From Mustelus asterias (taxonomy: Eukaryota): a stretch of DNA of 64,000 nucleotides. The translations under genes were made by a program, and so were the position numbers. Below the pieces are notes generated by a model, which saw only the letters and a program-made list of their open reading frames with translations, did not search any database and was not told the origin of the DNA. Positions 2,048 through 64,000 of this stretch are shown in pieces (the stretch's first letter is position 1; each line of letters opens with the position of its first letter). The DNA lies in assembly GCF_964213995.1 (NCBI RefSeq), contig NW_027590170.1, positions 868,001 to 932,000 of the forward strand, given 5' to 3'.

Positions 2048-2120
2048 TGTTTCTGCACGGTTTTGAACTAAGGACTTTCCACGTGATAAGTGAACGCGAT
2101 AGCCACTGCGCTGCGGAACA
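2048..2120 (-). pseudogene. tRNA-Val-like pseudogene
   Basis: Degenerate reverse-complement match to tRNA-Val at the homologous unit position. Confidence 0.72.
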
Positions 2121-2390
2121 AGTGACAGCATAATGCGGCCAATTGACCTGGCTACAATGTTCAACTCCATTGTGTTGCTGCACGTTCTCACAGTTAGATT
2201 GAGAGCCCATGTCGCTTAATACGAGAATACATCCGTTACTTTCAAACTGATATCTGAACTTATCTTGCACATCGAAATTAAAAAGCGTTCGCCCGCCAAA
2301 TGTCTCAGGGCGCAATGATTTCTCCTCCATTCTGCCTCATTCTTATATTCCTGCGAACATTTTCAGCCAATTATACGCAGTATTTGTTTC

Positions 2391-2578
2391 ATGGAATCAT
2401 GGAATCCCGACAGTGCCGGAAAGGCCATTCAGCCCAACGAATCTGCAGCGACTCCGGAGTATTGTAACTACACCCCTTTCCCGCGGCCTGTTCCCGTAAC
2501 ACTACTCCTTTCCCATGGCTAATCTATCGAACCCAATGGGCAATTTAGCATGCCCAATCCACTTAAATAGCGCATCTT
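2391..2578 (-). mobile_element. HE1-type V-SINE 3' fragment
   Basis: gggcaatttagcatgcccaatccac... matches the reverse complement of the SINE body at 23.4 kb; has a CR1-like tail. Confidence 0.7.
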
Positions 2579-3621: not shown

Positions 3622-3696
3622 CGCTTCTTGCCCGGTTTGCGAACCGGAGACTTTCGGCATATGAGGCAAACGTGACAACCACTACACTACATAAAC
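3622..3696 (-). pseudogene. tRNA-Val-like pseudogene
   Basis: Reverse complement GTTTATGTAGTGTAGTGGTTGTCACGTTTGCCTCATATG...; A-box intact, anticodon arm and T-loop altered. Confidence 0.78.
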
Positions 3697-4119
3697 ACCT
3701 GACCGCACGCTATAGCAAATCGGCCCATCTGTAATGTTCAACTGCGCAGTGCTGCTGCAGGTTCGAATGGTTAGACTGAGAGCTCATGACACTTGATTCA
3801 AGAAGAAAACCATTACTTTCAACCTGATTTCTCAACTTATCTTGTACTACAAAATTCAAGAGCGTTCGCCTGGCAAATATCTAAGGGAGCAATGATTTCT
3901 GCTCATTCATTAATGCATCATTCTCATCTTCCTTCGAATAATCTCAACCAGTTGTACTCATCATTTGTTTCGTTATTCAATATTTAATATCAAAACATTA
4001 TTTAACACATATATCCTCTTTATGAATTGAATATCTCTGAAATTGAATATCACTGAATTGCAAACATAACTGGCCAACAAAAGGAATCGAGTCTCCGGGT
4101 AATACAGATCCCATGTCCC

Positions 4120-4940
4120 ATACCAGGATGTTGCCTGGTATGGAGGGGCTTGGTTATGAGGAGAGATTGGGGAAACTGGGGTTGTTCTCCTTGGAAAGAC
4201 GGAGGATGAGGGGAGACTTAATAGAGGTGTATAAAATTATGAAAGGCATAGATAGGGTGAACGGTGGGAAGCTTTTCCCCGGGTCGGTGGTGACGTTCAC
4301 GAGGGGTCATAGGTTCAAGGTGAAGGGGGGGAGGTTTAACACAGATATCAGAAGGACATATTTCACACAGAGGGTCGTGGGGGCCTGGAATGTGTTGCCG
4401 GGCAAGGTGGTGGAGGCGGACACACTGGGAACGTTTAAGACTTATCTAGACAGCTATATGAACGGAATGGGAATGGAGGGATACAAAAGAGTGGTCTAGT
4501 TTGGACCAGGGAGCGGCGCGGGCTAATTGTTCCTTGTTTCTCGTGGAAGTGGAAATGACTAGGGTTGGGAAGCATTTTCCGATCAGGGCCATTGTGATCT
4601 CCTGGACTCGTTTCGATCGCCTCAGGGGGTCGGAGAGGAATTTCCCAGATTTTTTTTTCCCCATATTGGCCCTGGGGTTTTTCACTCTGGGTTTTCGCCT
4701 CTCCCTGGAGATCACATGGTCTGGAATGGGGGGGTGGGGGTGAGTTAATAGGTTGTAATGAACAAAGCATCGTAGCTGTGGGGGACAGCTCGGTGGATAG
4801 GATATTGGTATGTAGATAGGCTGGAAAATTGGGCGGGGATCCTGGATTCAGGATTCAATCCTGGACCGGGGAGCGGCGCGGGCTTGGAGGGCCAAAGGGC
4901 CTGTTCCTGTGCTGTATTGTTCTTTGTTCTTTGTTCTTTG
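4120..4940 (+). mobile_element. 5'-truncated CR1 LINE with extended, duplicated 3' UTR
   Basis: ORF 4113-4499 (TRMLPG...YEERL...LFSLERRRMRGDLIEVYK...TRGH...FTQRVV) is the CR1 ORF2 C-terminus; ends in a (ttgttct)n tail. Confidence 0.92.
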
Positions 4941-5543
4941 ATGCTTATTTGAGATTGACCATAGCCAGCTTTTAAACAAAGTCAACTATTTTTAAATGGA
5001 AGAGATTGAATTGTAATCTGCTAGTTATATTGAGCCTTTTTGGCTATGGGTGTGAAATATTCAGGCGCATAAATTTCGGCCATCTGTAGGAAATCCCATT
5101 TGATCGGCACTGAGTCTCGATTTCCTCATCTACCTGAGTGTTTTTTTCCTGTGTTTTTGTTATGAAGAACGAATTTAAAAACCATTCTTCTGGAAAATGT
5201 GCGCCATTTCCCTCAGTTTACTGCCAGTATCATTTGTGTCTGTCTTTTTGAGCACACACTATTTGACATGTTTCAGGTGTGATTAACTATGTTAGTCTGC
5301 ACCTATAAACACATTAAATTTTGTTGGATACTGAACGAGATGCTAAGTGTGCACGTCGTCAAAATAGAGACGTTTCTTTCCTGACAATGCATGAGAAATC
5401 AGCGTTTCTTATTTAACAGGAAGAATTTGAGGCATGGAGCAGAGCAAAGATAATACAGCTGTAACATAGAGATTAGGGTAATGTTCAGCAGCAAGCTGAA
5501 ATCATGCAGATTTCCTTCACTCTCTTTGAGAAAGCTTAATGAA

Positions 5544-5616
5544 TACTTCTGCCTGGTTTCGAACCGTGCACTTGTCGTATGTGAGGCGAAGGTGACAACC
5601 ACTACACTACACAAAC
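5544..5616 (-). pseudogene. tRNA-Val(CAC)-like pseudogene
   Basis: Reverse complement GTTTGTGTAGTGTAGTGGTTGTCACCTTCGCCTCACATACG...GGTTCGAAACC; A/B boxes retained, acceptor stem mismatched. Confidence 0.8.
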
Positions 5617-6447
5617 AAGTGACAGCTCAGCGCCGCCAATTGGCCTGACTACAATGCTCAATTCTACTGCGTTGTTGCAGGTTCGGATGGTTAGATTGAG
5701 GACCCATGTCACTTAATGTAAGAACACATCTGTTACTTTCAACCTGATATCTCAACTTTTCTAGAATCTCAAAATTGAAAAAGGTTCATCCGGCAAATAT
5801 CTAAGCGAGCAATGATTTCTTTGTCATTAATGTATCATTCTCATCTTCCGTCGAATAATTGCAACCAGTTATACCCAGTATTTCTCGTTTTACAACATTT
5901 ATTATCAATACATTTATTTAACACATATGTCATTCTGAATTGCATATCTCTGAAATATACAACGTTGTATGCAACATGACTAAATCTCATTCATCTGTAG
6001 GAAGTCCAGCAGGTTCCTACTGATTCTTGATTTCGTCATCTGTCTGAGTGGCTTTTCCTATTTTTTTTATCAAGAAGAACAATTTTAAAAAGGATGCTTC
6101 TGGGAAATATATGCCATTTCCTCTAGTTCAGTTACAGTTTAAATTGTGTCTGTCTTATGGCAGACTACTATTCGAAATGTTTCTCATGGTGATCAACTTT
6201 GTTAGTCTGTACCTGTAAACTCATTCAATTCTGCTGTGGACTGAACGAGTTGCGAATATGTGCACAAACAATGCAAACATTTATTTGCTGCCATTGCTTC
6301 CTAAAATACAGAATTTCTGATTTTCCTAAAGACATTTGAGGCCGAGGTCAAAGCCAATATAATATGGATGTAACATCGAGATTCGCATGATGTTGGGCAA
6401 TGAAATTAAGCACACATCGCTCACGCGTAATGAGAAATATCCAACAG

Positions 6448-10586: not shown

Positions 10587-11044
10587 ATCTATTTTGATTC
10601 AAAACGTCTCCCTCATTCTGGAATATATTCGTTCTCAATTAGTTCTTGATTTAATGGTGATCATCGACAAAACTGTCTTTCAGTCTCAATCTCAAACACC
10701 TCAATGAATTTCCCCTATCGGAACAACAGATCAGTCCAGTTCTGGGCGTTTCCATTCACTGGCATGCAATTTACTACAGGGAAGACTTGCACCACAGTAG
10801 TTCTAAGACCCAGGATTAGATAGATTCAGGTATGATTCTGGTCTGTGTCCGTCTGTCCAATTCGATTCTACAGTTTATTCCATTTTCTATGTCGCTCCAG
10901 GAAACAGTTGTGAGTCAGTTTGTTTCGAGGTTAATGTGGCTTAATTGCATTGTGTGTTTGAGCGGCTGAGAACGGTGCTGCTCATTGTGGCTGCATTTGT
11001 CCCAGATTCCACACAACCCCCAACAGACAGGAGCTCCCACACGC

Positions 11045-11083
11045 AGTTTTTGTACAGGGGCGAGACTGCTTTGTAGCATTGTG
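11045..11083 (-). promoter_or_regulatory. Recombination signal sequence, 23-bp spacer
   Basis: Reverse complement CACAATG + 23 nt + ACAAAAACT, immediately after YYCALS. Confidence 0.95.
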
Positions 11084-11541
11084 AGGCTGAGAGCGCAGTA
11101 ATATGTGGCAGTGTCTGTCAGCTGCAAACTTGAGATAGTCAAACTGGTGAATTTAGTCGAGATCTGGAGCTCCACGGAAAAACGTGTTTCAGCAAAATCT
11201 GCGTTCTCTTCATAATTATTCGTGTCCTTCAGCAGTACAAACTCGGGCTGTGTCTCTGGATACTGTCGGTACCAAGATAACGTATAGCCGTTCATTGCAG
11301 TCACATAGCTACAGTTTAAAGTCACCACTTCTCCTTCTGTCTTTGCATCTGATGAGAGCGACTGAGTGACAGTGTCTGCATGAGCCCCATCTGAAAGAAG
11401 AACAGAAAAGTTACGATCGGCAGCTGATCAAATTCTGATTTATCACATGGCTGGGAAACTAGAGAAAGGACGAAATGTCTTTCCTCCATCGTTACCTGTC
11501 AGGAATGCCCCCCACACAACCCAGATGCTGAGTAGTCGCAT
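11084..11541 (-). CDS. T-cell receptor alpha/delta V gene segment, apparently functional (leader 11496-11541, intron 11391-11495, V exon 11084-11390)
   Basis: Leader MRLLSIWVVWGAFLT with phase-1 GT..AG intron. V exon DGAHADTVTQ...VTLNCSY...WYRQYP...RFSVEL...LTISSLQLTDTATYYCAL is open, has the Cys23/Trp41/Cys104 pattern and is followed by a 23-RSS. Confidence 0.92.
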
Positions 11542-18553: not shown

Positions 18554-20654
18554 CTACTTTACTATTTTTACAATGAGATTGCCAAGATATTTTGCTGCAT
18601 TTTAGAACTTCTCTCTGAATTTCCTCTGCGTCACTGCATAAATGCACATGTTAGTGCAACAGCTCAGCAGCTGAAGCATGTTTCCACTTTCCTGGTGAAT
18701 GAATTTAGGGTCGTTGAAATTGGACCCTGCGAAATAAGATTCATTTATGATTTTCACACAGAGGAAATTCACAACGTATGTCGTCCACAACAGAATAAAG
18801 CTTCCCGTGATGGTGAAAAGTAAAACAATAGACTTCTTCCTGTTCTTCATTTCTGGATCATTCTGATTCTCTGCACTGCTGTGAGTCCGGAGTCTCTGGC
18901 GGGATCTACTGGCCGCCAGGATGTGTCTCACGGTCAGTGCATTAAACAACAAAATCAGAAGGAAAGGCAGAATAGGATTTAATACAAGTGCAAACCAGTC
19001 ATAACTGCCCATGAGAAGGAAGTGTAGTAGCTTGATTTTATCTTGCAAAACCAAGGCACATTTTCCACTATATAGACTGGCTCATATATAAAGTTCGAAT
19101 GAATCCTTTTCAAACAGTTCAACAAACAAACCGTTCCTACCACCACATCCGCTGTTTTTTCAGTGCAATAGTTTGTACGCACTTTCTGGCAGCAAATGGC
19201 TACATAACGATCAAAGGTGAAAAATAAGGTTAGCCAAACAGAACACTCCATGTTTGCCTAGATTATCACAGAACTCAGAGTACAGGCTGGAGTCAACGAC
19301 ATAAAACTTACCGGAAAATAAATGCCAATAATCCGATTGAATATTACAGCGATGACAACAACAAGGAGATCCGTCACTGCCATGGCAATCAGATAACGAG
19401 TAATGCATTTGGAGAGACCACACCTTCCTCGGGACAGAATCACAATCGCCACCACGTTAGCTGAGAGGAAAAAGAAAATTAAAGTTGTAAAGTTATTCAA
19501 CAAATTCCAAACAAGGACTGGGTGTGACAGACCTATTTGGACATATTTTCCAGTTCACCTTCGTTAGAAGAGACGGCTATTGATTATTTTTCAATGTCAA
19601 TTGTGTTTCAGAAAGAGCTACAAGGGCAACCTCCAGTTATGTTGCACCTTGAAGGCAAAAGGTTTCCCAAGTCTCTTAACAGGAAAGTGCTGCAGTACAA
19701 TTTGACATCTAACAACAGGAGCAGATATTAATTATGCTAAATGCTGAATAACTGGACGACGAAATACGCTTAAGGAAAGCATGTGAGGAACAGAGTGAGG
19801 AAGAAAGGCAATGTGATTCTGGACAATAATTGCAAATTTAAGGACTGAAAGGCTGAAGATGCCCAGATCGTATACGACATTTGGCATTCAACCTTTGTAT
19901 CATGTATCCCATAAACGAAATAGTCTGTAAATACGGTTGATATATCAGTTACAGTTGCATTGTTAAACTGTATAATGTGATAAGGATTCAGTTTGGCTTG
20001 TTAGAATTCCACGGGAATCTTCTCAGTAGGTAGGATGTATCAAGTTAATGCAATTTAAGGAGCATCAGATGGTTTGCATCAGAAATCCTGCTGGCTTGGA
20101 AACAGCAGTTTCCATTCTGCTGAGCAATGATATGAATTGCTCCATGATGAGAAGCGAAAAATGGTATATATTGACTGGAGTTTGATGCGTGAGTGGCGAC
20201 CTCGTTGAAAGAGAATTCTCAGCAGCCATACAGGGTATATACTGGGATGTCATGTCCGGTGATTGTGGAATCATGCCCAAAGTTTGTATTGCTGTAAATG
20301 TATTCTCACAGCAACTATAGATTTCAAAGACATGAGCAGCCTCGCTTTCATAAACGCATGCTGGCAAGAACAGCCACAGAGTATTGAATGTGTCAGAGAC
20401 TTAATGAGTAAGACTTGAGTTTAAATAAAACATAATTAAATAATGAAATGATAGGCCACCACTGAGCAAATAAGTTTTTAGAAGATACCTGGAAACAATT
20501 ATGTCATGTTCTTTATTGCCATGTTCAGCACTAACTTCATAAAACAGCGGCACGTCAAGTTAATGATTTCGTAGAATGACTTACCCGGAACCCCAATGGC
20601 AGCAATAATTGGATAGTAAATGCCATAAACTACACCAGTTATTCGACCATGCAT
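18554..20654 (-). pseudogene. GPR139/GPR142-like rhodopsin-class GPCR pseudogene (exon 1 20585-20654, exon 2 18554-19460)
   Basis: Exon 1 MHGRITGVVYGIYYPIIAAIGVP|gt splices in phase 1 to ANVVAIVILSRGRCGLSKCITRYL...SVWLT..FTFDRYVAIC...LLFNALTV...NRKKSIVLLF...LLSCCTNMCIY. Disabled by an in-frame TAG at 19258-19260, a frameshift near 19000 and a premature TAA at 18602. Confidence 0.88.
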
Positions 20655-23159: not shown

Positions 23160-23249
23160 GGCTTGTTGGTCGAGGGGTATGATTCTCGCTTTGGGTGTTT
23201 AACTGTACAAGCTTGCGAGAGGTCCCGGGTTCAAATCCCGGACAAGCCC
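23160..23249 (+). tRNA. TRNAP-UGG: tRNA-Pro(TGG) with 18-nt intron (23196-23213)
   Basis: Removing TGTTTAACTGTACAAGCT after G37 gives a 72-nt sequence nearly identical to vertebrate tRNA-Pro(TGG). Acceptor stem GGCTTGT/ACAAGCC is paired; B-box GGTTCAAATCC is intact. Confidence 0.9.
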
Positions 23250-33884: not shown

Positions 33885-34367
33885 GTGCGAGGTGAGATTG
33901 GAGCAATAAAATGATGCCTGTGCCTCTCCCCTACGCTGGTGGAAAGAACATTGTTTTTTTTTGTTGTTTTAGTGAATCACAATGATAATTGATAATGCCA
34001 CGAACCAAAACCTTTGAATGTACAGGGCATAGATTTCAGGGAAAATTGTGCAAGGTAGCGAAAGAGAAAAAGAATACAAGGGTTGAATACTCGTCGAAAA
34101 AACTGTGGAGATTGACCACCAGCACAGAGCACTGGGGCGGAACGGCCTGCTTCTCTGCTGTCATTTCTATCCAACTTTCAAGTCCAACTCGCAGTTTTCG
34201 GAGAGAATGACGGCACTGGTCCGTACTCCGAGCAGGGTAAGAATGCAAAGGGGACAAGGAAAATATTCTACATTCAGGAGAACAAAGATTCTTCTCACAC
34301 TTGTCAACCTCTTTCACTACTTCTGGAATTCTCCAGTTTATTGACATTTATTTTGCATTTTCTGCAG

Positions 34368-34759
34368 ATCCAAATCCTCGTGCACCGTCCGTCTCTGTCC
34401 TCCTGCCCTCGGCAGAAGAAGTCTCCTCTCCGAGATTCGTCTACCTCAGTTGCTTTGTGAGAGGTTTCTCCCCACGAGAGACCTTTGTCAAGTGGACCGT
34501 CAATTGCCAGCCGGTGAATCCTGGGAACTACAGGAACAACCAGGTGATGGGGAAGAAGGGCAATAGCTCCTTCTTCATGTACAGCCTGTTATCCATTGCA
34601 GCGGAGGAGTGGGCCAGCGGCGCTTCTTACTCCTGTGTGGTGGGACATGAAGCCATCCCCTTGAAGATCATCAACAGAACAGTTGATAAATCCAGCGGTA
34701 AACCTAGTTTTGTGAACATTGCCCTTGCACTGACAGACATCATCAATTCATGTGAATGA
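34368..34759 (+). CDS. IGHM: IgM heavy chain Cmu4 exon plus secretory tailpiece
   Basis: ag|[20 protein letters not shown]...[15 protein letters not shown]...[59 protein letters not shown]. Internal TM-form donor G|GTAAAC and an AATAAA ~30 nt after the stop. Confidence 0.93.
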
Positions 34760-39092: not shown

Positions 39093-39987
39093 TCAAAACT
39101 TAAACAAATTAATAAATAATTTCAGTGGATAATTCACTCCATTCTTTAACTCGGCTCTGAAATTCCTTTGAGTCCCAGCATAAATAAACGGGTTGATGCA
39201 GGAACTCAGAAACTGCAGCATATATCCGCTTTCCTCCAAGATAAATGACCATTCACTAATATCAGGAACAGAAAAATAAGGAACCTTTGCAATTCGGACA
39301 TAGAGTATCGTCACAAAAAATAACGTATATAAGAGATGGCAAAGAGTAAAATAATGGACTTTCTCCGCTTCTCCACCTCTGGGTCACTCTGTTTTTCTCC
39401 ATTACTCTGTGCCCGGAGTCTCCTGCGGGCCCGATTAGCCGCGACAATGTGTTTGACGGTCAGAGCATTGAACAATAAAATCAGAATAAATGGGATACAG
39501 GGCATTGAAATTGTTCGAAACAAATCATAGGCGTCCCATGCGGGGGATGTATAAAATAATTGTTTTATAACACAGAACCAAGGTATGTTGTCAATTATAT
39601 GCAGAGGTTCAAAGATAAAATACAGGAAGGATGTTTTTAGAGAGCTCAATGTGCAGACGGTCCCTATGACCCACGCTGCTGTCTTCTCCGTGCAGTATTT
39701 GATTTTCAGCTTCTGGCAGCAAATGCCCACAAATCGATCAAAGGTGAAAGCAACCGTTAACCAGGCAGAACTGTCAATGGTTGCGTAGATTATCACAACG
39801 TGCAGAATGCATATTGGTGTGATTGACAGGAAACTGCCGGGGAAATAAATCCCAGCAGTCCGGCTTAATATCACGCTGGTGATAATGACCAAGAGATCCA
39901 TCAACGCCATGGACACCACATAGTAAATTATACATCTGGAGAGACCACAGCTCCTTCGGTATAGGATTAAAATGACTGCCAAGTTTG
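39093..39987 (-). pseudogene. Second GPR139/GPR142-like GPCR pseudogene (exon 2; possible decayed exon 1 ending near 40917)
   Basis: cag|ANLAVILILYRRSCGLSRCII...SAWLTVAFTFDRFVGIC...LLFNALTV...RRKSIILLFAIS, then a deletion/frameshift in TM6, then LQFLSSCINPFIYAGTQRNFRAELKN. Confidence 0.88.
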
Positions 39988-42048
39988 CTGTAAAATAGAG
40001 AAGGAAAGGGAACATATGGGTGACAGCACGATAGACAAGATGTTATTTTCTCAACTCCCATCCAAATGATACAAGATTGTGCAAGAAATTGAAACGTTTG
40101 CGACTTGATTCTGCTTTGCAAACTGTCCCTTGTTCGGGTTCCCATGCACATAATCATAAGAATTATAAATAAGCTGGGTCAGTGACATGGAACTGCATAA
40201 TGCAATACAATATAATGAAATTTAAGAAAATATTAAATAACCATAAATGCAACTTCAGGAATAGTCAGCAACTTATTACAGGACACGTTGGATATGTAAT
40301 TATAAAAATACATTAATTGCCATATTCAACTGGAAAGTTCCCATCTCGTTCAACTTCAAAAGTTGCCCCATCTGGAGAATTATTCTTAAACTATTCACTG
40401 TTGGAAATGCCTGCATTAAACCAAAATATAAATCTTCAATCAAAACAGCGGGAGCCAATTGGCGTTTCTCTGAATTTACAAAGGCAATGTTGAAAGGAGC
40501 TCCTAACCTGAGAATTAGCCGTAATTGCTGGTGTATAATGTAATACTGGAACTGGCAGATGTAAAGGACGCAATTGAAGAGAGTCTTACTCTCATTGCAG
40601 GGGTAAATGAACAAATCTGACCTGAAGTGCATATTTGAAGGTAAATATCAGATTTGGAGCTCGCAAGCAGTACTGGGTCCATTCAATATGTCTTCTGAAA
40701 TTTCAGAGAGAGGCGTGCAACTGACCGCAGGCATTTCCAAAATCACTTATATTCCATGCAAAATATGCCTCCAGTTACCGTACCTCGGTCAACATAGTCA
40801 AAGCAATCAGAAAAGAATGGAGAGAAATTGTGACTTGTGTAATGAGAGTCCAGGATACAGACTGGAGACGAAAATAGTGTTCTTGTGTTTTTTATGGGTG
40901 TGTACCAATTACTCACCAAAGAGCCACGATTGCAATCCTCCTATACTGTCAAAAACCCATTGACACCTAAGGTCTGTCAATAAAATATTTCATTATGTTC
41001 AGACAGCAATTATTTGTACGACTCAATCCATTGCTCTCAATATCCACAACACGAAGAATATCGAGAATTATATCGTGATAACGTTGTGGTAATTCGCCCA
41101 CTGGAACAGGGAGAAGATGATACATATTTACATGCGCAGAGAGGTGACAATGTGATAATTCAAGCACAACAATGATACTGATAATACAAAAGTTACATGT
41201 TTGCACGGCAATAACTATAACTTCCAATAGCAGCAACAATAATACTGCAGAAATGGATTTATGCTGTGGTATCCAAGTGAAAATTCGTAATGGTTAGTGT
41301 GTCAATGTTGTAATCGAACTACATGTACAATATAATAACTTTGAAGTAATCCATCTACAATAACATTGCTAAGAAAAATATAACTACATTTCTAAATTGA
41401 GTTTGCAGTGGTAAATAGCAAGGTAGGACGCGTGAGGTGGGACAAAAGTGTGGCACAGGTCAGAGGCAGGGAGAGCCACAGTGAATGAGGCTCCCGCGGG
41501 CCTCATACAAAATCTGGCACAGGTCGATAATCAATGATTCATTGTCAGGACAACACATGGTGTTAAAAATCAGCGAAAATTTACTCATAGTGAACCTGAC
41601 AATACAGTCCCGTCTAAGTGTTTTCCCTCACTGAGGTTACTGATTGTCACTGTTGGGAAGTTTAACATGTTTTTACTCATATTACTATCACATCAAGTCC
41701 AATCGCTCCCCGATCCTTTCACACAAACCCACAGATCTCCCAGGTGAACCATGTCATCAGACAGACCACACCTTTCAAAAGTGATCAAGTATCAAAGGCA
41801 GACTCAGAGTTGTCACATGTTGAAGTCGCTGGGTTAAAATTATTGACTGTAACATGTGTACTTTATAAACAAAAACCCACAGTTGCAAACAGTCGAGGTA
41901 ACAATATTGGACGGATATTTTGCTGGAACTTAAAGTCCACAAATGCTGATGCGGTAAGTTATTTAATCAATTTCGGCTTTCACTCGAGGTGTCAGAACTG
42001 CTTTGTAGAAAGTTAAACAATTTTTATTTTGCTGGCTACTAACGTGCA

Positions 42049-42138
42049 GGCTCGTTGGTCTAGGGGTATGATTCTCGCTTAGGGTACCTCGCCCCATTAG
42101 CATGCGAGAGGTCCCGGGTTCAAATCCCGGGCGAGCCC
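42049..42138 (+). tRNA. TRNAP-AGG: tRNA-Pro(AGG) with 18-nt intron (42085-42102)
   Basis: GGCTCGTTGGTCTAGGGGTATGATTCTCGCTTAGGG[TACCTCGCCCCATTAGCA]TGCGAGAGGTCCCGGGTTCAAATCCCGGGCGAGCCC. Exons are essentially canonical vertebrate tRNA-Pro(AGG); TTTT terminator at 42141-42144. Confidence 0.93.
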
Positions 42139-42439
42139 CGTTTTGACCGAAATATTGTGTTCGAAAGGAGATATTGTGATTTGTTTCAGGTGCAAACGGC
42201 GGGATGGCTTTCTGCTGACTGGCTCCGAAAAAGAGTCACAAAGGCACAGAATCTTACAGCACGGACAGAGCCCACTCGGACACCCACATGGCAGGCGCGG
42301 ACATCCATCATGTCTGCGCCTGCCACGTGAGAGCTGGACGGGAAGCGTTCGTTCTGATTCTCGCTCCACAGATACTTCCAAAAGTACTGACATAACCCAG
42401 TATTTTCTGTTTCTATTTCAGGTTTTGAAAGTCCGCAGT

Positions 42440-44935: not shown

Positions 44936-45021
44936 AAAACATATCTGCCCAGAAATAGCCAGGATTAGTTGGCAAGAAATGCATTTGCCAATGTTGGACA
45001 CCTAAGTGTTAAAATAAGCCG

Positions 45022-45094
45022 CATCCCAGAAGTGACTCGAACACATGCTCCCTGGTTTAGGAAGCCAGTGCCTTACGCGTTAGGTTACTGGGAC
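45022..45094 (-). pseudogene. tRNA-Arg(CCT)-like pseudogene
   Basis: Reverse complement GTCCCAGTAACCTAACGCGTAAGGCACTGGCTTCCTAAACCAGGGAGCATGTGTTCGAGTCACTTCTGGGATG resembles Arg(CCT); D-loop GG lost and T-stem mismatched. Confidence 0.75.
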
Positions 45095-47849: not shown

Positions 47850-48802
47850 GGTTCAGTGAGCTGCCTGGATGTTTCTTTTTGTTCATGTGGGTGTCGCTGG
47901 CTAGATCAGCATGCACTGCCCATCAGTATTTAGCCTTGAGAAAGTTGTGGTGAGCTGCCTTCTTGAAACGTTGTAATCCATTTGTACAGGAACACTTACA
48001 GTGCTGTTAGGGAGGGAAGTCCACGAATTTGTCCCAATGACAGTGAAGGAACGGCGATATATTTCCAAATCAGAATGCTGAGGGAATTGAGGGTGGTGTT
48101 GGCTGTGTGGCGTTGGAGGGGGGAGGGGGGAGAGGGGGCGGGGGGGGGGGTGGCAGGGGAGCTGCCAGGTGGAAGCGGTCTTGGGTTTGGGAGATGCTGT
48201 CTAAAGTGCCTTTGGTGGATTCCTGCATCATGCAGACAAGTGGAGAATATTCTATCGCACTCCTGACTTGTGCCACGTCGATCGTGGACTGTTTTGTGGG
48301 AGTCGGGAGGTGAGTTACTCCCACAGGATTCCCATCCTCTGCCCTGCTCTTTTAGCCACTGAATAAACTGATAACATGCGTGCTGAGTCAGAATAGGTGT
48401 GTCTTCTTTCCTGCTCAGTTTGTCGTGAATTTTCCGCACTTTTGTCTTTTCCTGAATGTATTTTGAGGCTCAAGTAAGGGCCAATGCCATATGATTGTAA
48501 GATACTACATTCAGGTAATATTCAATCGTGGATTCACTAGCGGGAGGGGTACGGTTTCGAGTCATGTTGTTGACGCTGGATTGATAAAGCAGAGAAGCAG
48601 GCTGAAGCTTTGGGAACCAGGGTTCGAATTCCAACACAGCAGATTAACTCAATTCAAGGCAAAGTAGAATTACTGTAAGTGAGTAGAGAAAATTTTAATT
48701 ATGTAATATTTCCTCACTAAAACGAATATGTTTTGACCATGTTTCTGCCGATTTTGAAGCCTCGGACCGATATATAAACATTGCTGCACGCTGCTTTGCC
48801 GT

Positions 48803-48875
48803 GGGCTAGTGGCGCAATGGATAACGCGTCTGACTACGGATCAGAAGATTCCAGGTTCGACTCCTGGCTGGCTCG
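48803..48875 (+). tRNA. TRNAR-ACG: tRNA-Arg(ACG)
   Basis: GGGCTAGTGGCGCAATGGATAACGCGTCTGACTACGGATCAGAAGATTCCAGGTTCGACTCCTGGCTGGCTCG; canonical apart from a U5.G68 wobble. Confidence 0.95.
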
Positions 48876-50583
48876 GTGTGATAATTTAACAGTAGTTCAC
48901 AAACTCCATGTTCGTGTGGGTGAAAAATGTGTGTTGACAAATTTTGGACCAATTCAGAGAAATGTTGACCAAATGCAGTCAGCTTCTGTGATGAAATTTA
49001 TCTTAGCCAATGATTGTTCAAAAAAATGTTGACTATTCTAAGAAAAAAAATACTGATAAACTTCAATTAAGTTTTTTTTTAAAAAATAGTTTATTTAAAT
49101 GACGAATTCTCGTTAAAGTATTCGGGGAAAATATGTTAGCAAGTTTAAGCTACTCTTTAAAAAGTTGGAAATTTCTCGAAAAATATGAGGAAACATTACA
49201 TTTTTCAAAATGGTGAAAACATTTTCTAAAAAGTTGATGAACTCTGATTAAACATGTTTAATTTTAAGAAGCAAAATACACAGAAATGTTTTTTAAAAGT
49301 TGACAAATTTCAGTTAAATCAGATGGAGGAATTTCTTTGGAGTAAGTTTAGTTTTGAAAAGTTCAAATTAGCCAGAAGTTTCTGGTTTGTGATGCTGGGA
49401 TTGTTGTCCATTGGAGCGAAGGAGATTGAGGAGCGATTTAATCGAGGTGGACTAGATTAGGGCAAGTTTAGAGGGGGAGGGGCAAATTTTAAGATATTGG
49501 GCAAGGCGGGGGCGAAGAAGATTTGGAAGCAACATTTTTTCCACAGCGAGTGCTCAGGACCTGGAACTCATTGCCTCCGAGAGTTTTGGATGAGGTCAAT
49601 TTAGGTAATAGAAATTCTGAGGTGGACATGGACTTCCTGAGAAAGAAGATGGGTCTCCAGGAACATTCTTTAGGCAGGTAGATGGATCTCCTCGGTGACA
49701 TTGAATCTGAAGATCAACCTGTGGAAGCACACCCCTTCCCCGGCCACCGCCCCCACCCACTGTTGAGAACAGTACAGCACAGGAAACAGGCCCTTCGGCC
49801 CTCCAAAATGTTTGACAAGAACCCCGCTGATATTAAATGCAAGGGCATCAAAATCAAAAAGGGTATTTTGGAACATTCGTTCTTCGTTGTAGATATTTTC
49901 AATTTCATATAACGTGAAAAAGGATATGCAAAATATTCAGACTGTTGAATGGGAACTCCCGACATTGTTACAAGGACAACATTAACCATTTACCTCATTG
50001 TCACCACCTCAGAAGCTGTCTTGGCTCAAGGGCCAACATTGCGGTGAATCCTCGTTTCGGTCCCGCTGTGGGGAAAACAACTTCATTGATTCACTGGCCC
50101 TGCTCTGACGTAATAAACTGGAGAACAAAGGGTCTGTGAGCTGATTGGATGAATTGGAGAATCAGGGACATGATTGGACGTCACCAGTTGATTCGTTTGG
50201 GAATTAACCAATCGCTGGAGAGACCGGAAATACATGTAAATATCTTCACCCAAACAATTACAGATTGAACCCATTCTGTTTAATTCCGCAATAAACTCGC
50301 TGCAAACATGTTGGGTATCATTTTGTATTCGTTTCTCACTGTTTCAGCTCTTTTGCCTGGTAAGTCTACAAGGGACATAAACTTCTTCTTGCAAGCGATG
50401 TCGACAGTAATTTGGGTCCGCTTTGCTGTAGATGATAATGTGATCCGTGTTCTGATGTTATGAGTTACAATAGAATGATAATAACACCTTAACTTTCAAT
50501 ATTTCTAAATTTCTGCCGGTGTCACTACTGGAGACTCAATATCAAAGGAGCCGGTTACAGCGATGAAGTTTGAATGGGACTCA

Positions 50584-56092: not shown

Positions 56093-56939
56093 ATTCATTA
56101 AACTTTCTCATGGAGGGTGAGGTATGTCTGTATGATTTCAGTTTCTTGCTGAATATCATCGGAATCTCGATGTTACAGCCACATTATCTTTGCTCTGACC
56201 TCGGCCTCAAATGCTTTCTCCAAAATCAGAAATGCTGAATTTTATGACGCAATGTCAGGAAAGAAACGTTCCTATTTTGACACCGTGCACATATTAGCAT
56301 CTGCTTCAGTTTACACCAGTGTTTAGTTGGTTTAATAGATGCAGACTAACATAGTTAATCACCATCTGAAACATGTCTAATAGTGATGAGTGCTCAGAAA
56401 GACAGACACAAGTGATGCTGTAAGTGAACTAAAGGAAATTGCACACATTTCCCGGAGCATTCTTTTTTGAAGATCGTTCTTCATAATAAAGAAATAGAAA
56501 AAAAAACACTCAGACAAATGAGAAAATCGAAACTTAGTGCGGATTTGTTGGACTTTCCTATCGATGGACGGAATTTTTTAAGCGCCTGAATGTTAGTTAC
56601 ATATATTAACCGGTGACTCGATTCCTTTTGTTGGTCAGTTATGTTCGACATAAAATGTTGAATAACGACAAATACTGGATATAACTGGTTGAAATTATTC
56701 GACGGAAGATGATAATGATGCATTAATGATTGAGCAGGAATCATTGCTCCCATAGACATTTCCCAGACGAACGCTTTTGAATTTTGAAGTTCAAGATGAG
56801 TTGAGATATCAGGTGGATAGTAACGGAGTTGTTCTTGTATTAAGTAACATGGGCCCTAAATCTAACCATGAGAACCTGCAGCAAAACAGTGGAGTTGAAC
56901 ATTGTAGTCAGGCGAATTGGAGGCGTGGTGCTGTCTCTT

Positions 56940-57012
56940 GTTTCTGTAGTGTAGTGGTTATCACATTTGTTGAACACGCGCAAGGTTTCTGGCTCGAAAC
57001 CGGGCTGAAACA
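56940..57012 (+). pseudogene. tRNA-Val(AAC)-like pseudogene
   Basis: GTTTCTGTAGTGTAGTGGTTATCACATTTGTTGAACACGCG...; anticodon arm damaged. Confidence 0.78.
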
Positions 57013-57720
57013 TTCATTAAGCTTTCTCATGTCGGGTGGGGGGAATCGATATGATTTCAGTTCGTTGCTGAACATTATCCGAATCTCGATGTTACAGCCA
57101 TATTATCATTGCTCTGACCTCGGCTTCAAATGTTTTCTGGAAAATAAGAAATGCCGATTTATTTTTGACGCACTGACAGAAAGAAACGTTTCGATTTTGA
57201 CGCAATGCACATAATAGCACCACGTTCAGTCTACAACAGAATTTAATGGGTTTATAGGTGCAGACTAACATCGTTAATCACCATCTGAATCATGTCCAAT
57301 AGTAGGGTGTGCTCTAAAGGATAGACACAAGTGATACTGCAAGTGAACTAGAGGAAACGGAGCATATTTCCCAGAAGAATCCTTTTTAAAATCGTTCTTC
57401 ATAACAAAGAAATAGGAAAGAAGACTCAGACAGATGAGGGAATGAAGACTCAGTCCGGATCTACTGGACATTCCAAAAGATGGCCGGAAATTATGCGCCT
57501 GAATATTTCACGCCCATAATAAAAAGCTCAAGTGTAACTCACAGATATCTTTTCAATCCCTTCCATTTAAATGTGGTTGACTTTGTTTGAAAGCAGACTA
57601 TGGTCAATCAAAAAAATTGCGATCTGTATTACCCGGTGATTCGATTCCCTTTGTTTATCAGTTATGTTTGCAATTGAGTGATATTCAATTTCAGAAATAT
57701 TCTATTCATAATGAAGACAT

Positions 57721-58535
57721 ACAGAACAGTACAGCACAGAACAGGCCCTTCAGCCCACGATGTTGTGCCAAGCTTTATCTGAAACCAAGATCAAGCTATC
57801 CCACTCCCTATCATCCTGGTGTGCTCCATGTGCCTATCCAATAACCGCTTGAATGTTCCTAAAGTGTCTGACTCCACTATCACTGCAGGCAGTCCATTCC
57901 ACACCCCAACCACTCTCTGCGTAAAGAACATACCTCTGATATCCTTCCTATATCTCCCACCATGAACCCTATAGTTATGCCCCCTTGTAATAGCTCCATC
58001 CACCCGAGGAAATAGTCTTTGAACGTTCACTCTATCTATCCCCTTCATCATTTTATAAACCTCTATTAAGTCTCCCCTCAGCCTCCTCCGCTCCAGAGAG
58101 AACAACCCTAGCTCCCTCAACCTTTCCTCATAAGACCAACCCTCCAAACCAGGCAGCATCCTGGTAAATCTCCTCTGCACTCCTTCCAGCGCCTCCACAT
58201 CCTTCTTATAGTGAGGTGACCAGAACTGCGCACAATATTCCAAATGTGGTCTCACCAAGGTCCTGTACAGTTGCAGCATAACCCCACGGCTCAGAAACTC
58301 CAACCCCCGTTAATAAAAGCTAACACACTATAGGCCTTCTTCACAGCTCTATCCACTTGAGTGGCAACCTTTAGAGATCTGTGGATATGGACCCCAAGAT
58401 GTCTCTGTTCCTCCACAGTCTTCAGAACCCTACCTTTGACCCTGTAATCCACATTTAAATTAATCCTACCAAAATGAATCACCTCACATTTATCAGGGCC
58501 TACCAAAATGAACCACCTCACATTTATCACATTTA
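57721..58535 (-). mobile_element. CR1 LINE in a tRNA-Val unit, with a ~32-bp tandem duplication at its 5' truncation
   Basis: ORFs 57791-58303 and 58291-58617; cctaccaaaatgaa(t/c)cacctcacatttatca is repeated at ~58466-58529. Confidence 0.92.
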
Positions 58536-58873
58536 TATGTGTTAAATAATGCATTGATATTAAATATTGAAACAAATACTGAGTACAATTGTAAAATGAG
58601 CTTTGACAAAGTATCATCTGGACTCGAAATGTCAGCTATTTTCTATCCTTACAGGTGCTGCCAGACCTTGTGAGATTTTCCTGCATTTTCTCTTTTGGTT
58701 TCCGATTCCAGAATCCGCAGTAATTTGCTTTTATTACGGAGTACAAATGGTTCAGATTATTCGAAGGAAGATGTGAATGATGCATTAATGAATGAGCAGA
58801 AATCATTGCTCCCTCAGATATTTGTCAGACGAACCCTTTTAAATTTTAAAGTTCCAGGTAAGTTGAGCAATCA

Positions 58874-59697
58874 GATGGAAAATTGGGCGGAGAAATGGTA
58901 GATGGAATTTAATCCAGATCAATGCGAAGTGATGCATTTTGGAAGAACGAATGTCGGGGGGAGTTATACAATAAACGGCAGAGCCACCAAGAGTATAGAA
59001 ACACAGAGGGGCCTAGGTGTGCAAGTCCACAAATCCTTGAAGGTGGCAGCACAGGTGGAGAAGGTGGTGAAGAAGGCATATGGTATGCTTATCCTTATAG
59101 GACGGGCTATAGATTTTAAAAGCTGGAGTCTGATGTTGCAGCTGTATAGAACGCTGGTTAGGCCACATTTGGAGTACTGCATCCAGTTCTGGTCGCCGCA
59201 CTATCAGAAGGACGTGGAAGCTTTAGAGAGAGTGCAGAGAAGGTTTACCAGGATGTTGCCTGGTATGGAGGGTCTTAGCTATGAGGAGAGATTGGGTAAA
59301 CTGGAATTGTTCTCCCTGGAAAGACGGGAATGAGGGGAGACCTAATAGAGGTGTACAAGATTATGAGGGGTATAGATAGGGTGAACAGTGGGAAGATTTT
59401 ACCCAGGTCGGAGGTGACGATCACGAGGGGTCAAGGGCTCAAGGTGAGAGGGGCGTGATATAACTCAGATATCAGAGGGACGTTTTTTTGCACAGAGAGT
59501 GGTGGGAGCCTGGAATGCGCTGCCAAGTAGCGTTGTGGAGGTAAACACGCTGGCATCGTTTAAGACTTACCTGGATAGTCACAGGAGCAGTCTGGGAGTG
59601 GAGGGATACAAACGAATGGTCTCGTTGGACCAATGAGCGGCACAGGCTTGGAGGGCCGAAGGTCCTGTTTCCTGTGCTGTACTGTTCTTTGTTCTTT
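58874..59697 (+). mobile_element. CR1 LINE in a tRNA-Val unit
   Basis: ORF 58902-59333; ttgttctt tail; related to the 4.1 kb element but with a short 3' UTR. Confidence 0.92.
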
Positions 59698-59821
59698 GAA
59701 AGTAATGGGTACCTTCCTGAAACAAGTGACATGGGCTCTCAGTCTAACCATTGGAACCTGCAGAAATACAGCGCAGTTGAACATTGCAGGAAGGCCGATT
59801 TGCTGTAGTCTGCTGTCAGCA

Positions 59822-59894
59822 GTTGCTGTAGTGTAGTTGCTATCATGTTCGCCTCACACGCAAGCGGCCCCGGGTTTGAAACTGAGTAGAAACA
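59822..59894 (+). pseudogene. tRNA-Val(CAC)-like pseudogene
   Basis: GTTGCTGTAGTGTAGTTGCTATCATGTTCGCCTCACACGC...; A and B boxes mutated. Confidence 0.78.
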
Positions 59895-60662
59895 TTCATT
59901 AAGCTTTCCCATGCAGGGTGAGGGAAACCTGTGTGATTTCAGTTCGTTCCTGAACATTATCCGAATCTCGACGTGACAGCCATATTATCTTTGTTCAGAC
60001 CTTGGCCACAAATTCTTTCTGCTAAGTAAGAAATGCTGATAGTTTTTTGATGCACTGGCAGGAAAGAAACGTTTCGATTTTGACACCGTGTATATATTCG
60101 CATCACGTTCAGTCTACAACAGAATTTAAGGGGTTTATAGGTGCAGACTAACATCGTTATTCACCATCTGAAACTTTTCTAATCGTAGTATGTGCTCCAG
60201 AAGACTGACGCAAATGCTACTGTAAGTGAACTAGAGGAAATGTTGCACATTTCCCAGGAGAATCTCTACTGAAACAGTTCTTCATGACAAAGAAATAGGG
60301 AAAAAAACCATTCAGACAGATGAGGAAATCGAGCCTCAATGCGGATCTAGTGGACTTTCCAATAGATGGCCGGAACTGATGCGCCTGAAAGTTTCACGCC
60401 CATAATAAAAAAGGCTCCACTGTCACTAACAGACAATTCTTCAAAGTCTTCCATTTAAATGTGGTTGACTTTGTTTAAAAGCTGGCCATAGTCAATCTCA
60501 AAATTGTGATCTGTATTACCCGGTGACTCGATTCATTCTGTTGCTCAGTTATGTTTGCAATTCATTGACGTTCACTTTCAGAGATATCCAATTCATAATG
60601 AAGACATATGTGTTAAATAATGCCTTGATACTAAATAGTGAAACAAATACTGAGTACAATTG

Positions 60663-60806
60663 CACAATGAGCTTTGACAAAGTGTCGTCTGGACTCGAAA
60701 CGCCAGCTCTTTTCTCTCCTTACAGATGCTGCCAGATCTTGTGAGATTTTCCAGCATTTTATCTTTTGGTTTCAGATTCCAGCATCTGCGGTAACTGGCT
60801 TTTATT
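60663..60806 (+). mobile_element. 144-bp short element with a degenerate hammerhead-like head; copies also at 58592-58735, 62167-62310 and 63393-63523
   Basis: Perfect 14-bp TSD ACTGAGTACAATTG at 60649-60662 and 60807-60820; absent from left-array units and from the 56.6 kb unit. Confidence 0.85.
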
Positions 60807-61106
60807 ACTGAGTACAATTGGTTGAGATTATTCGAAGGAGGATGAAAATGATGCATTAATGAATGGGCAGAAATCATTGCTCCCTCAGATATTTGCCAGA
60901 CGAACGCTTCTAAGTTTTGAAGTTCAAGATAAGTTGAGCAATCAGGTTGAAAGTCGCGGTTATCTTCCCGACACAAGTCACATGGGGGTAGGGGGGGGGG
61001 GGGTGGCGGAGGAGAGGGGGTTCTCAGTCTAACCATTTGAACGTGCAGCAATACAGCACAGTTGAACATTGCAAACAGGCCGATTTGCTCTAATGTCACT
61101 CAAGCT

Positions 61107-61179
61107 GTTTCTGTAGTGTAGTGGTTCTGACGTTCGCCTGACACGCGAAAAGTCCCCAGTTCAAAACCACGCAGAAACG
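61107..61179 (+). pseudogene. tRNA-Val-like pseudogene, anticodon GAC
   Basis: GTTTCTGTAGTGTAGTGGTTCTGACGTTCGCCTGACACGCGAAAAGTCCCCAGTTCAAAACCACGCAGAAACG; T-stem broken. Confidence 0.8.
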
Positions 61180-61349
61180 TTCGTTAAGCTTCTTCATGTC
61201 GTGTAAGGGAAAATTGCTTAATTTCAGTTCGTTGCTCATCACCATGCGAGCCTCGATGTTAAAGGCGCGTTATCCTTGCTCTGACATCACCCTCAAATGC
61301 TTGCTGTAAAATAAGGAACAGGCCGATTTGCTGTCGTCACTTATCAGCT

Positions 61350-61422
61350 GTTTCTGTAGTGTAGTGGTGATCACGTTCACTTCACACGCGAGAAGTCCCC
61401 GGTCCGAAACCGAGCAGAAAAA
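61350..61422 (+). pseudogene. tRNA-Val(CAC)-like pseudogene (short 243-bp local duplication)
   Basis: GTTTCTGTAGTGTAGTGGTGATCACGTTCACTTCACACGCG...GGTCCGAAACC. Confidence 0.8.
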
Positions 61423-62576
61423 TTCATTCATCTTTCTCATGTAGGGGGAGAGAAATCTGTATCATTTCAGTTCATTGCTGAACATTATCCGAATCTCGAT
61501 GTTACAGCCATATTATCTTTGCCCTAAAGCTGGGCCTCAAATGTTTTCTATAAAATAAGAAATGCTGATTCATTTTTTGACACACTGACAGGAAAGAAAC
61601 GTTTCGATTGTGACACATATTCGCATCTCGTTCAGTCTACAACAGAATTTAATGGGTTTATAGGTGCAGACTAACATGGTTAATCACCATCTGAAACATA
61701 TCTTATAGTAATGTGTGCTCCAGAAGACTGACACAAGTGATCTACATGAAAGACACTCATTTCCCACAAGATTCTTTTTTGAAATCGTTCTTCACAACAA
61801 AGAAATAGGGAGAAAAAAAAACTCAAACAGATGAGGGAATCGAGACTCAGTGCGGTTCTCCTGGACTTTCCTATTAATGGCCAGAATTTATGCGTCTGAA
61901 TGTTTCACGCCCATTATAAAAAAGGCTCAAGTGTCACGAACAGATAATTCTTGAATCTCTTCCATTCAAATGAAGTTGACTCTGTGTGAAAGCTGACTAT
62001 GTTCAATCGCAAAATTGCGATCGGTATTACCCGGTGACTCGATTCCTTCTGTTGGTCAGTTATGTTTGCAATTCAATGATATTCAATTTCAGAGATATTC
62101 AATTCATAATGACGTGTTAAATAATGCATTGATGCTAAATATTGAAACAAATACTGAGTACAATTGTAAAATGAGCCTTGACAAAGTGTCATCTGGACTT
62201 GAAACGACAGCCCTTTTCACTCCTTACATTTGCTGTCAGAGCTTCTGAGATTTTCCAGCATTTTCTCTTTTGGTTTCCTATTCCAGCATCCGCAGTAATT
62301 TGCTTTTATTACTGAGTACAGTTGGTTGAGATTATTCGAAGAAAGATGAGAATGATGCATTAATGAATGGGCAGAAATCATTGCTCCCTTAGATATTTGC
62401 GGGACGAACGCTTTTAAATTTTGATGTTTGAGATAAGTTGAGCAATCAGATTGAAAGTAACGGTTATCTTCCTGAATTCAGTGACATGGGCTCTCAGTCT
62501 CACCATCGGAACCTGCAACAAGACAGCGGAGTTGAACATTGCAGATAGGCAGCTTTGCTCTAACGTGTTTTAGGCT

Positions 62577-62649
62577 GTTTCTGTAGTGTAGTGGTTAACA
62601 CATTCGCTAAACACGCAAATAGTCCCCGCTTCGAAACCAAGTAGAAGCA
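62577..62649 (+). pseudogene. tRNA-Val(AAC)-like pseudogene
   Basis: GTTTCTGTAGTGTAGTGGTTAACACATTCGCTAAACACGC...; stems damaged. Confidence 0.78.
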
Positions 62650-63789
62650 TTCATTAAGCTTTCGCATGTCGTGTAAGGAAAAATTGCTTGATTTCAGTTA
62701 ATTGCTCAACATTATCCGAAACCCGATGTTAATGGCATGTTATCATTGCTCTGGCATCACTCTCAAGTGTTTTCTGTGAAATAAGAAACGATTTTTTTTT
62801 GACGCACTGACAGGAAAGTTCGATTTTGACACCGAACACATATTCGCATCTCGTTCAGACTACAACAGAATTTAATGGGCTTATAGATGCAGATTAATAT
62901 GGTTAATCACCATCTGAAATATCTGATAGTAGTGTGTGTTCAAAAAGTGATACTGTAAGTGAATTGGAGGAAATGGCGCACATTTCACAGAAGAATCTTT
63001 TTTAAAATGGTTTTTCGTCACTAAGAAACAGGAAAAGACACTCAGGCAGATGAGGAAATCGAGACTCACTGCGGATCGACTGGACTTTCCTGTAAAGGGC
63101 CGGGATTTATGCGCCTGAATGTTTCACGCCCGTAATAAAAAAGGCTCAAGTGTCACGAACAGATAGTTCTTGATTCTCCTCCATTTAAATGTCGTTGACT
63201 TTGTTTAAAATTTGACGATAGTCAATCTCAAATTTGCGATCTGTATTAGCCGGTGATTCGATTCGTTCTGTTGGTCAGTTATGTTTGCAATTCAGTGATG
63301 TTCAATTTCAGAGATATTCAATTCATAATGAAGACATATGTGTTAAATAACGCATTGATATTAAATATTGAAACAAATACTGTGTACAATTGTACAATAA
63401 GCTTTGATAAAGTGTCATCTGGACTTGAAACGTCCGCCCTTTTCACTCCTTACAGGTGCTGCCAGACATTGGGAGATTTTGCAGCATTTTCTCTTTTCTC
63501 ATCCGCAGTAATTTGCTTTTATTAATGAGTACAATTGATTGAGATTGTTCGAAGAAAGATGGAAATGACGCATTAACGAATGGGCAGAAATCATTGCTCC
63601 CTTAGATATTTGCCAGAAGAAGGATTTTGAATTTTGATGTTCGGGATAAGTCGCAGAATCAGATTGAAAGTGACGGTTATCTTCCTGAATTCAGTGACAT
63701 GGGCTCTCAGTCTCACCATCGGAACCTGCAGCATCACAGCGTAGTTGAACATTGCAGACAGGCAGATTTGCTCCAGTGCGATTACAGCT

Positions 63790-63862
63790 GTTTCTGTAGT
63801 GTAGTGGTTATCACATTCGCCTAACACGCGTAAGGTTCCTGGTCCGAAACCAGGTAGAAACA
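63790..63862 (+). tRNA. tRNA-Val(AAC), best-preserved copy, function doubtful
   Basis: GTTTCTGTAGTGTAGTGGTTATCACATTCGCCTAACACGCGTAAGGTTCCTGGTCCGAAACCAGGTAGAAACA; T-stem paired, but T-loop reads TCC instead of TTC and there is one anticodon-stem mismatch. Confidence 0.6.
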
Positions 63863-64000
63863 CTCATTCAGCTTCCTCATGCCGCGTAAGAGAAAATTGA
63901 TTGATTTTAGTTTGTTCCGAATCAGTTTCCGAGCCTCGATTTTAACGGCATGTTATCATTGCTCTGACGTCACCCTCAAATGCTTTCTGTGAAATAAGAA

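Follow-up and report, generated by a model that had tools for sequence, protein, structure and literature searches.

A tRNA-Pro(AGG) gene with an 18-nucleotide insert

The 64,000-nucleotide stretch of Mustelus asterias DNA analyzed here (the window) holds a tRNA-Pro(AGG) gene (42049-42138, plus strand) in which a 72-nt tRNA body is interrupted by 18 further nucleotides. The question that it raises is whether this insert is an intron that the ordinary tRNA splicing enzyme would remove, or merely a random indel. The 5′ exon (42049..42084, G1 to G37) is identical to an intronless gene of the same genome and contains the A box (42056-42066), U32 (42079), U33 (42080), the anticodon AGG (42081-42083) and G37 (42084). 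The insert (42085..42102) was placed at site 37/38 by ARAGORN, by inspection and by its pairing register, and is followed by the 3′ exon (42103..42138, U38 to the discriminator C73), which includes the B box (42117-42127). A G in place of A at 42131, giving U.G in the acceptor stem, is the sole exon difference from the intronless gene, and a run of four T residues (T4; 42141-42144), the minimal Pol III terminator, lies beyond the exon; all of these features are on the plus strand. The gene therefore keeps the mature tRNA body (with one wobble-preserving change), both promoter boxes and the terminator, and in these respects, as in the 18 nt after G37, the initial annotation was borne out. The presence of U on both sides of the insert permits a one-base shift, but in copies whose inserts start with G, A or C only 37/38 is possible. 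In intron mode, ARAGORN reported the gene as tRNA-Pro(agg) with an 18-nt intron, and it was missed both by a tRNA scan without introns and by an Rfam scan at the gathering threshold.

The insert had also been credited with a bulge-helix splice geometry. Its segment at 42097-42100 (UUAG, intron nt 13 to 16) can indeed pair with loop positions 35 to 32 (G35, A34, U33 and U32, as G.U, A-U, U-A and U.G), which makes G(-3), at 42100, the anticodon-intron partner of U32 and leaves C, A and U38 as an unpaired 3-nt bulge. The bulge and the 4-bp register thus stand as claimed, but a loop takes the place of the second bulge and the helix is a minor one in computed folding. The strict archaeal bulge-helix-bulge (a 4-bp helix, two 3-nt bulges and an outer helix) is absent from the window gene, whose geometry is instead bulge-helix-loop, with the 5′ site inside a 14-nt loop made up of G36, G37 and 12 intron nucleotides. 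With the cloverleaf stems enforced, the helix had a probability of 0.31 to 0.34 for three of its pairs and 0.01 for the fourth; it was absent from the free minimum-energy fold and was not singled out by folding alone (z = -1.07), and the intron bases can alternatively pair with G35 to G37.

The window contains a second member of the family, a tRNA-Pro(TGG) gene (23160..23249, plus strand) with a different 18-nt intron (23196-23213), recognized by ARAGORN in intron mode and by inspection. Its intron positions -6 to -3 (CAAG) pair with G35, U34, U33 and U32, i.e., they are the complement for its own anticodon. However, this copy is probably weak or dead, since it has three exon changes and runs into a SINE-like repeat without a preceding T4. 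The scan without introns miscalled it as tRNA-Lys(ctt).

Several other features of the window deserve mention. An IgM-like last constant exon with a secretory tail (34241-34759, plus strand) sits among tRNA genes and LINE fragments; compared near 34358-34756, it reaches 82 to 84% identity with shark IgM, 62% with a skate protein and 49 to 57% with chimaera proteins, and among its 42 matches all of the named ones are from cartilaginous fish, with shark IgM the closest, in support of a shark host. There is also an antigen-receptor V-like exon (10915-11427, minus strand), and two fragments (39311-40042, plus strand; 18602-19081, minus strand) resemble, by eye, single-exon G-protein-coupled receptor genes. 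Six decayed tRNA-Val genes form a run at 56939-63863, and further Val and Arg copies lie at 230-5617, 45021-45094 and 48802-48876.

Proline tRNA genes across the genome

We counted tRNA-Pro genes genome-wide with a pattern that was exact over the anticodon arm and allowed an insert of 8 to 30 nt, a design that excludes decayed copies and favors intact ones. It recovered 173 insert-bearing genes (64 AGG, 90 TGG and 19 CGG) against 10 intronless ones (6 TGG, 3 AGG and 1 CGG), i.e., ca. 95% of exact-core Pro genes carry an insert. Reversed control patterns gave no match anywhere in the genome, and a shorter pattern found no inserts of 1 to 7 nt genome-wide while recovering the same 10 intronless genes. 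Read by eye, the inserts were 18 nt long in 146 genes, 17 nt in 6, 15 nt in 1, 14 nt in 4 and 13 nt in 16. The comparison of intron-bearing with intronless Pro genes that the initial annotation had called for therefore reveals a genome-wide family. Given that a first look had returned 552 and 612 Pro candidates, decayed copies probably outnumber intact ones. Moreover, 173 is not a clean gene number, since some of the small contigs may be duplicated haplotypes; two loci are 99.7% identical over 3 kb, although C71 by itself accounts for 27 of the genes.

The two kinds of gene are laid out differently. All 10 intronless genes are on contigs C3 (159.8 Mb), C4, C10 and C17 (91.9 Mb); three of them are decayed, and the other seven are perfect, are terminated and cover all three anticodons, so that splicing is not demanded by gene content. 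Contigs numbered up to C23 carry 8 of the 173 insert-bearing genes. The others are on smaller contigs, among them C71 (20.4 Mb, 27 genes) and C85 (5.7 Mb, 13 genes), where they sit among other tRNA genes and repeats, mostly in arrays. Copies of the window gene's family have ca. 2.2 kb of flank in common at 90 to 97% identity, which points to segmental duplication. On C85 of this assembly (G000), Pro(CGG) intron genes recur every ca. 0.64 to 0.67 Mb (1015628, 1680515, 2342466 and 2983663), a spacing that suggests very large tandem units.

Two intact Pro(AGG) genes with introns form a divergent pair, 1.7 kb apart, at 64.52 Mb on G000:C19, a contig of 85.7 Mb (L091:1477-1566, minus strand; L092:1480-1569, plus strand). 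Both have terminators; their exons are identical and match perfectly, with C at position 19 in both, their introns are 0.44 alike, and their flanks are CpG poor. They are candidates for an ancestral or tissue-restricted locus. Only repeats, and no synteny marker, were seen near this pair or the intronless loci among the flank matches listed.

Possible pairing between intron and anticodon loop

In the available portions of PMC8479045 and PMC10275265, the hallmark of a TSEN substrate is a pyrimidine at position 32 paired with the third-last intron base. Across the Pro family, the insert is at site 37/38, and by eye the third-last base is a purine in 157 of 173 genes, comprising all AGG and TGG genes and 3 of the 19 CGG genes. 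The remaining 16 CGG genes have a pyrimidine there, so most CGG copies fail the anticodon-intron pair rule. The main Pro(CGG) family (L074-L083 and L085-L089; 15 copies) has U at -3, facing U32 as U.U, and mostly U at position 16, and either TSEN tolerates U.U or this family is unspliced; a related copy (L073:2392-2481) has G at -3. Human TSEN needed only a pair at this position (PMC8479045, part of the text), although a Drosophila reporter yielded next to no product when the proximal pair was U-G, and less product when it was U-A (PMC6614914, likewise in part).

We examined the register of the pairing in 60 distinct anticodon/intron types, drawn with a relaxed pattern from 102 distinct contexts. 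Positions 32, 33, 34 and 35 pair with -3 to -6 in 53, 59, 52 and 59 of the 60 types, so that 223 of 240 cells are paired in this register, compared with at most 128 of 240 in seven others. At -5, opposite the wobble position, 18 of 20 AGG types have U, 28 of 30 TGG types have A or G and 6 of 10 CGG types have G. Eight representatives, chosen by hand as one per intron family, form 29 of 32 possible pairs; shuffled introns formed 15.05 ± 2.8, and none of 100,000 shuffles reached as many. Six of the eight pair best with their own anticodon, the CGG representative ties, and one C19 gene fits TGG better. In 14 hand-picked, aligned 18-nt genes, the wobble pair is A-U in four, U-A in four, C-G in three and unpaired in three, and 91% of helix cells are paired, compared with 18 to 57% when the helix is slid; one column pair covaries. 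These counts and shuffles overstate independence, because the copies are related by duplication, and only a few ancestral changes, in that one column pair, underlie the covariation. Computed folding gave the helix as dominant in two of the eight representatives and did not favor it in six.

Even so read, conserved length, register, the reversed control and covariation together exclude the possibility, raised with the initial annotation, that such inserts are rare random indels without conserved length or pairing. Four genes (L072:1480, L084:1480, L090:1480 and L071:1480) carry an intron from the family of another anticodon, with a wobble mismatch, and are likely to be recent anticodon point changes. 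We also considered whether the AGG intron arose when the gene duplicated its anticodon arm, given that UUAG can pair with itself and that CTCGC occurs again within the intron. This idea is not needed, since the TGG and CGG introns carry complements of their anticodons rather than duplicates.

Inserts in other isotypes

The intron class is broader than first described, in that it takes in all three Pro anticodons and also tRNA-Arg(UCG). Genome-wide, 58 of 59 exact-core Arg(UCG) genes carry an insert of 16 to 22 nt, and one (L190) does not. The intron-bearing genes (L192:1479-1571, plus strand, and 57 more) have A2 and U65 (counted along the spliced gene) where the intronless gene has other bases, and these two positions could serve as markers of splicing. 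Among the Pro genes, U16 of the CGG family, C19 of the pair on contig C19 and G65 of the window gene likewise occur in none of the exact-core intronless genes. The pair C32-G(-3) is found in 15 of 15 distinct types, although, owing to repeats within the intron, the -6 register fits almost equally well. As a negative control, Arg(ACG/CCG) gave no insert-bearing genes genome-wide. Leu(AAG/CAG/TAG), a second control, gave one insert, a plain tandem duplication: in L382 (G000:C71:13736022-13736060), a Leu(AAG) gene, 12 nt of the anticodon loop are duplicated in tandem, a chance mimic of an intron.

Other isotypes were sampled in 800 kb of stretches plus the window, a sample outside which Ala, Cys, His, Phe and others fall. 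Credible introns in it were confined to Pro, Arg(UCG), Arg(UCU) and Ile(UAU), the last two being the ordinary intron genes, which this genome also has. Asn, Asp, Gln, Glu, Gly, Leu(AAG, CAG, TAA and TAG), Lys(CTT), Met, Ser, Thr, Trp and Val genes in the sample were intronless. Additional "intron" calls by ARAGORN for SeC, Val, Ala, Ser, Gln and Arg(gcg) were rejected as SINE pieces, misfolded or decayed Pro and Arg genes, or noise. The genome also has an exon of the TSEN catalytic family (one PF01974 match over the cut-off).

Are the inserts spliced?

We consider it likely, from the genes themselves, that the inserts are TSEN-type introns of the ordinary kind, in isotypes for which no vertebrate intron class has been described, and that the usual tRNA splicing enzyme cuts them out. 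What we envisage is an old, array-amplified shark tRNA-Pro family with introns at the canonical position in all three anticodons, part of which would be transcribed by Pol III. As with human TSEN, the shark enzyme would bind the mature tRNA body and measure to the 5′ site after G37, and would use the U32:purine(-3) pair and the 3-nt bulge to cut before U38; RtcB ligase would then join the exons into an ordinary tRNA-Pro. Arg(UCG) would follow the same scheme. The common 18-nt length and the saturated intron sequence suggest a single old origin. For the window copy itself, with its U.G pair, we are less confident, although on balance it is probably transcribed by Pol III, cut by TSEN and ligated by RtcB. 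The initial annotation's proposal of a TSEN-spliced tRNA-Pro class in this shark is in this way supported in part: every sequence property that we tested agrees with it, and splicing itself is what we infer. A suggested link to the order of I34 editing, in contrast, can be rejected, because the introns are not specific to AGG (109 of the 173 intron genes are TGG or CGG and lack A34) and because three intact AGG genes without an intron specify an identical mature tRNA. Intron-dependent modification, the other role suggested there, finds no support in these genes.

The most serious alternative, which we nevertheless regard as unlikely, is that the introns were once real but that today's copies, carried along as passengers by segmental duplication, are silent or stay unspliced, with intronless genes making all of the tRNA-Pro and with duplication and gene conversion keeping the exons alike. 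In keeping with such an account, the intact intronless set sits on large chromosomes, copies have kilobases of flank in common, neighboring tRNA genes in the arrays (e.g., the Val genes of the window) are heavily decayed, and the anticodon-intron pairs are weak (U.G) or absent. Around the window gene, CpG is richer than in 96% of array windows (the 96th percentile of the array background), a modest enrichment and a weak sign.

The state of the exons argues the other way. In the eight representatives the exons are identical at 69 to 71 of 71 positions, compared with 0.22 to 0.67 for the introns and 0.38 to 0.77 for 60-nt flanks. Families whose flanks cannot be aligned thus still have conserved exons, and this conservation extends beyond the promoter boxes to the acceptor stem. 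Within families, diversity (mean pairwise difference, with exon positions taken only outside the searched core) is two to five times lower in exons than in flanks: 0.034 versus 0.137/0.193 in AGG-18, the window gene's family (24 copies; 0.299 in the 5′ part of the intron), 0.137 versus 0.262/0.316 in TGG-18 (21 copies), 0.023 versus 0.042/0.054 in CGG-18 (13 copies) and 0.022 versus 0.099/0.090 in TGG-13 (4 copies). In the 88 distinct copies with an exact core, the exons are perfect in 28, carry at most one change in 54 and carry three or more in 21; a T4 lies within 30 nt in 52 and is lacking in 36, and 37 combine at most one exon change with a T4 in that distance. Near-intact copies also have CpG-richer flanks than decayed ones (median 0.68, n = 54, versus 0.51, n = 21), with the reservation that the copies are not independent. 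Furthermore, changes at -3 in the window gene's family stay G or A, and passengers would leave Arg(UCG) with a sole exact-core intronless gene. Conservation of the whole body would be explained most simply by splicing, since an interrupted anticodon loop cannot decode.

A role that does without splicing, either as TFIIIC/Pol III chromatin elements within the arrays or as unspliced tRNA-like RNA, strikes us as improbable. The promoter boxes are intact, a barrier function of tRNA genes is established (PMC10275265), and the helix is weak in folding, all of which would suit such a role; however, it leaves unexplained why the spacing to U38 is fixed at 3 nt, why a purine stands at -3, why the base at -5 follows the wobble base and why the acceptor and anticodon stems are conserved. 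Random insertion, a tRNA-derived SINE or assembly error can be dismissed with near certainty: most copies are indeed on small, repeat-rich contigs, and the Leu(AAG) gene proves that chance tandem duplications of the anticodon loop exist, but insert lengths are 0 or 13 to 18 nt only, several unrelated-looking inserts occupy one site and register, two intact copies are on the 85.7-Mb chromosome (C19), and flanks are shared through segmental duplication without a retroposon body (ca. 2.2 kb of flank within a family and no common 3′ body across families).

If the inserts are indeed removed as ordinary TSEN-type introns, the spliced product would be identical or nearly so to that of the seven intact intronless genes, and since it matches their tRNA, the intron family would raise the dose of existing decoders, possibly in oocytes, and would not supply a new one. 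One more speculative possibility, which we hold only tentatively and which rests by analogy on the parallel between the array/scattered layout in this shark and that in zebrafish, is that Pro and Arg(UCG) each have two parallel gene sets, a scattered intronless somatic one and intron-bearing arrays that stock the egg. The maternal supply of all proline decoders may then pass through TSEN, and the introns may represent an ancient vertebrate state that was lost in mammals; were this true, tRNA splicing would be put to use in development.

The mechanism itself is ordinary. What matters is that the picture of vertebrate tRNA introns rests on human and mouse, and that which tRNAs bear introns, and why, is an open question. 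With introns in ca. 95% of intact-core Pro genes and nearly all Arg(UCG) genes, the repertoire has changed within the vertebrates. The coexistence of intron-bearing and intronless genes for the same tRNA makes this genome a natural test of what introns do (in modification, dose or tissue), and the U-A, U.G and U.U variants probe how much of an anticodon-intron pair vertebrate TSEN needs. For annotation, the practical point is that scans without an intron mode miss or misname such genes.

Relation to known tRNA introns

Introns in tRNA-Pro are not in themselves unusual, one being known in the tRNA-Pro(UGG) of yeast. In metagenomes, where Pro(AGG) introns are common in eukaryotes with other exons, we found at least 121 loci, with introns mostly of 18 to 20 nt, which we take to be fungal. 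Among the matches listed, 66 of 84 types have a purine at -3, and in the Pro(AGG) introns this is most often G (35 of 74 types). Metagenome and fungal Pro introns thus share isotype, site and similar length with those of the shark. They differ in that the metagenome Pro(AGG) genes have other acceptor stems and weaker pairing at positions 33 to 35 (203 of 336 cells), and the shark exon is in none of the 121 loci, among the matches listed. Nor did those matches hold any sign of common descent with the shark introns; they held no animal-type exon, which is not informative on absence in animals. Lineage-specific gain and loss of tRNA introns is documented for yeasts (PMC4090602).

The shark array and scattered copies of the same tRNA have a counterpart in zebrafish, where maternal isodecoders form repetitive arrays and late isodecoders are isolated genes. 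That study, in the available part of its main text, makes no mention of tRNA introns (PMC11417395).

A human tRNA-Pro(AGG) intron has also been predicted, in what we take to be a low-confidence call. It concerns one gene of 10, from GtRNAdb (PMC3159098, Table 4), and is absent from a later list of human intron families, namely, Tyr(GUA), Ile(UAU), Arg(UCU) and Leu(CAA) (PMC10275265). The initial annotation's statement that vertebrate introns belong to these four classes consequently holds for human high-confidence genes but not for that prediction; moreover, the human case is likewise a vertebrate Pro(AGG) intron but a single copy, whereas the shark genes form a conserved multifamily class. 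A survey of GtRNAdb gives Tyr, Ile, Leu and Arg(UCU) introns for animals (PMC12168002), and the axis of its Fig. S7, which pools eukaryotes and offers labels without values, places UCG, AGG, CGG and UGG in the first dozen or so. The papers searched in full text contained no description of introns in the Pro or Arg(UCG) genes of any vertebrate, sharks included. The portions available of PMC13079951, PMC12530127, PMC4033280, PMC4536317, PMC8044555 and PMC2888827 contain nothing on them, and no shark entry was found in what was available of the supplements of PMC8044555 and PMC8450103. The pattern may already be visible in GtRNAdb, however, since the accessible text of PMC8450103 names elephant shark among the genomes behind tRNAscan-SE 2.0.

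Judged by the genes, the shark introns are most likely TSEN introns of the textbook kind, and they occur in two isotype groups that the literature searched does not list among the intron classes of vertebrates. As in the four vertebrate families processed by TSEN and RtcB (PMC10275265 and PMC8479045, as far as these are available), a short intron lies at 37/38, base 32 can pair with the third-last intron base so as to leave a 3-nt bulge, and the intron sequence varies among members; as in Arg(UCU) and Leu(CAA), intron-bearing and intronless genes are mixed. Unlike those families, the shark isotypes are Pro(AGG, UGG and CGG) and Arg(UCG), the Pro genes have U32 rather than C32 and often a U.G pair, and the intron-bearing genes make up nearly the whole exact-core set and are arrayed, with the intronless ones scattered. 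These two intron-bearing families would join the four known from humans and mice.
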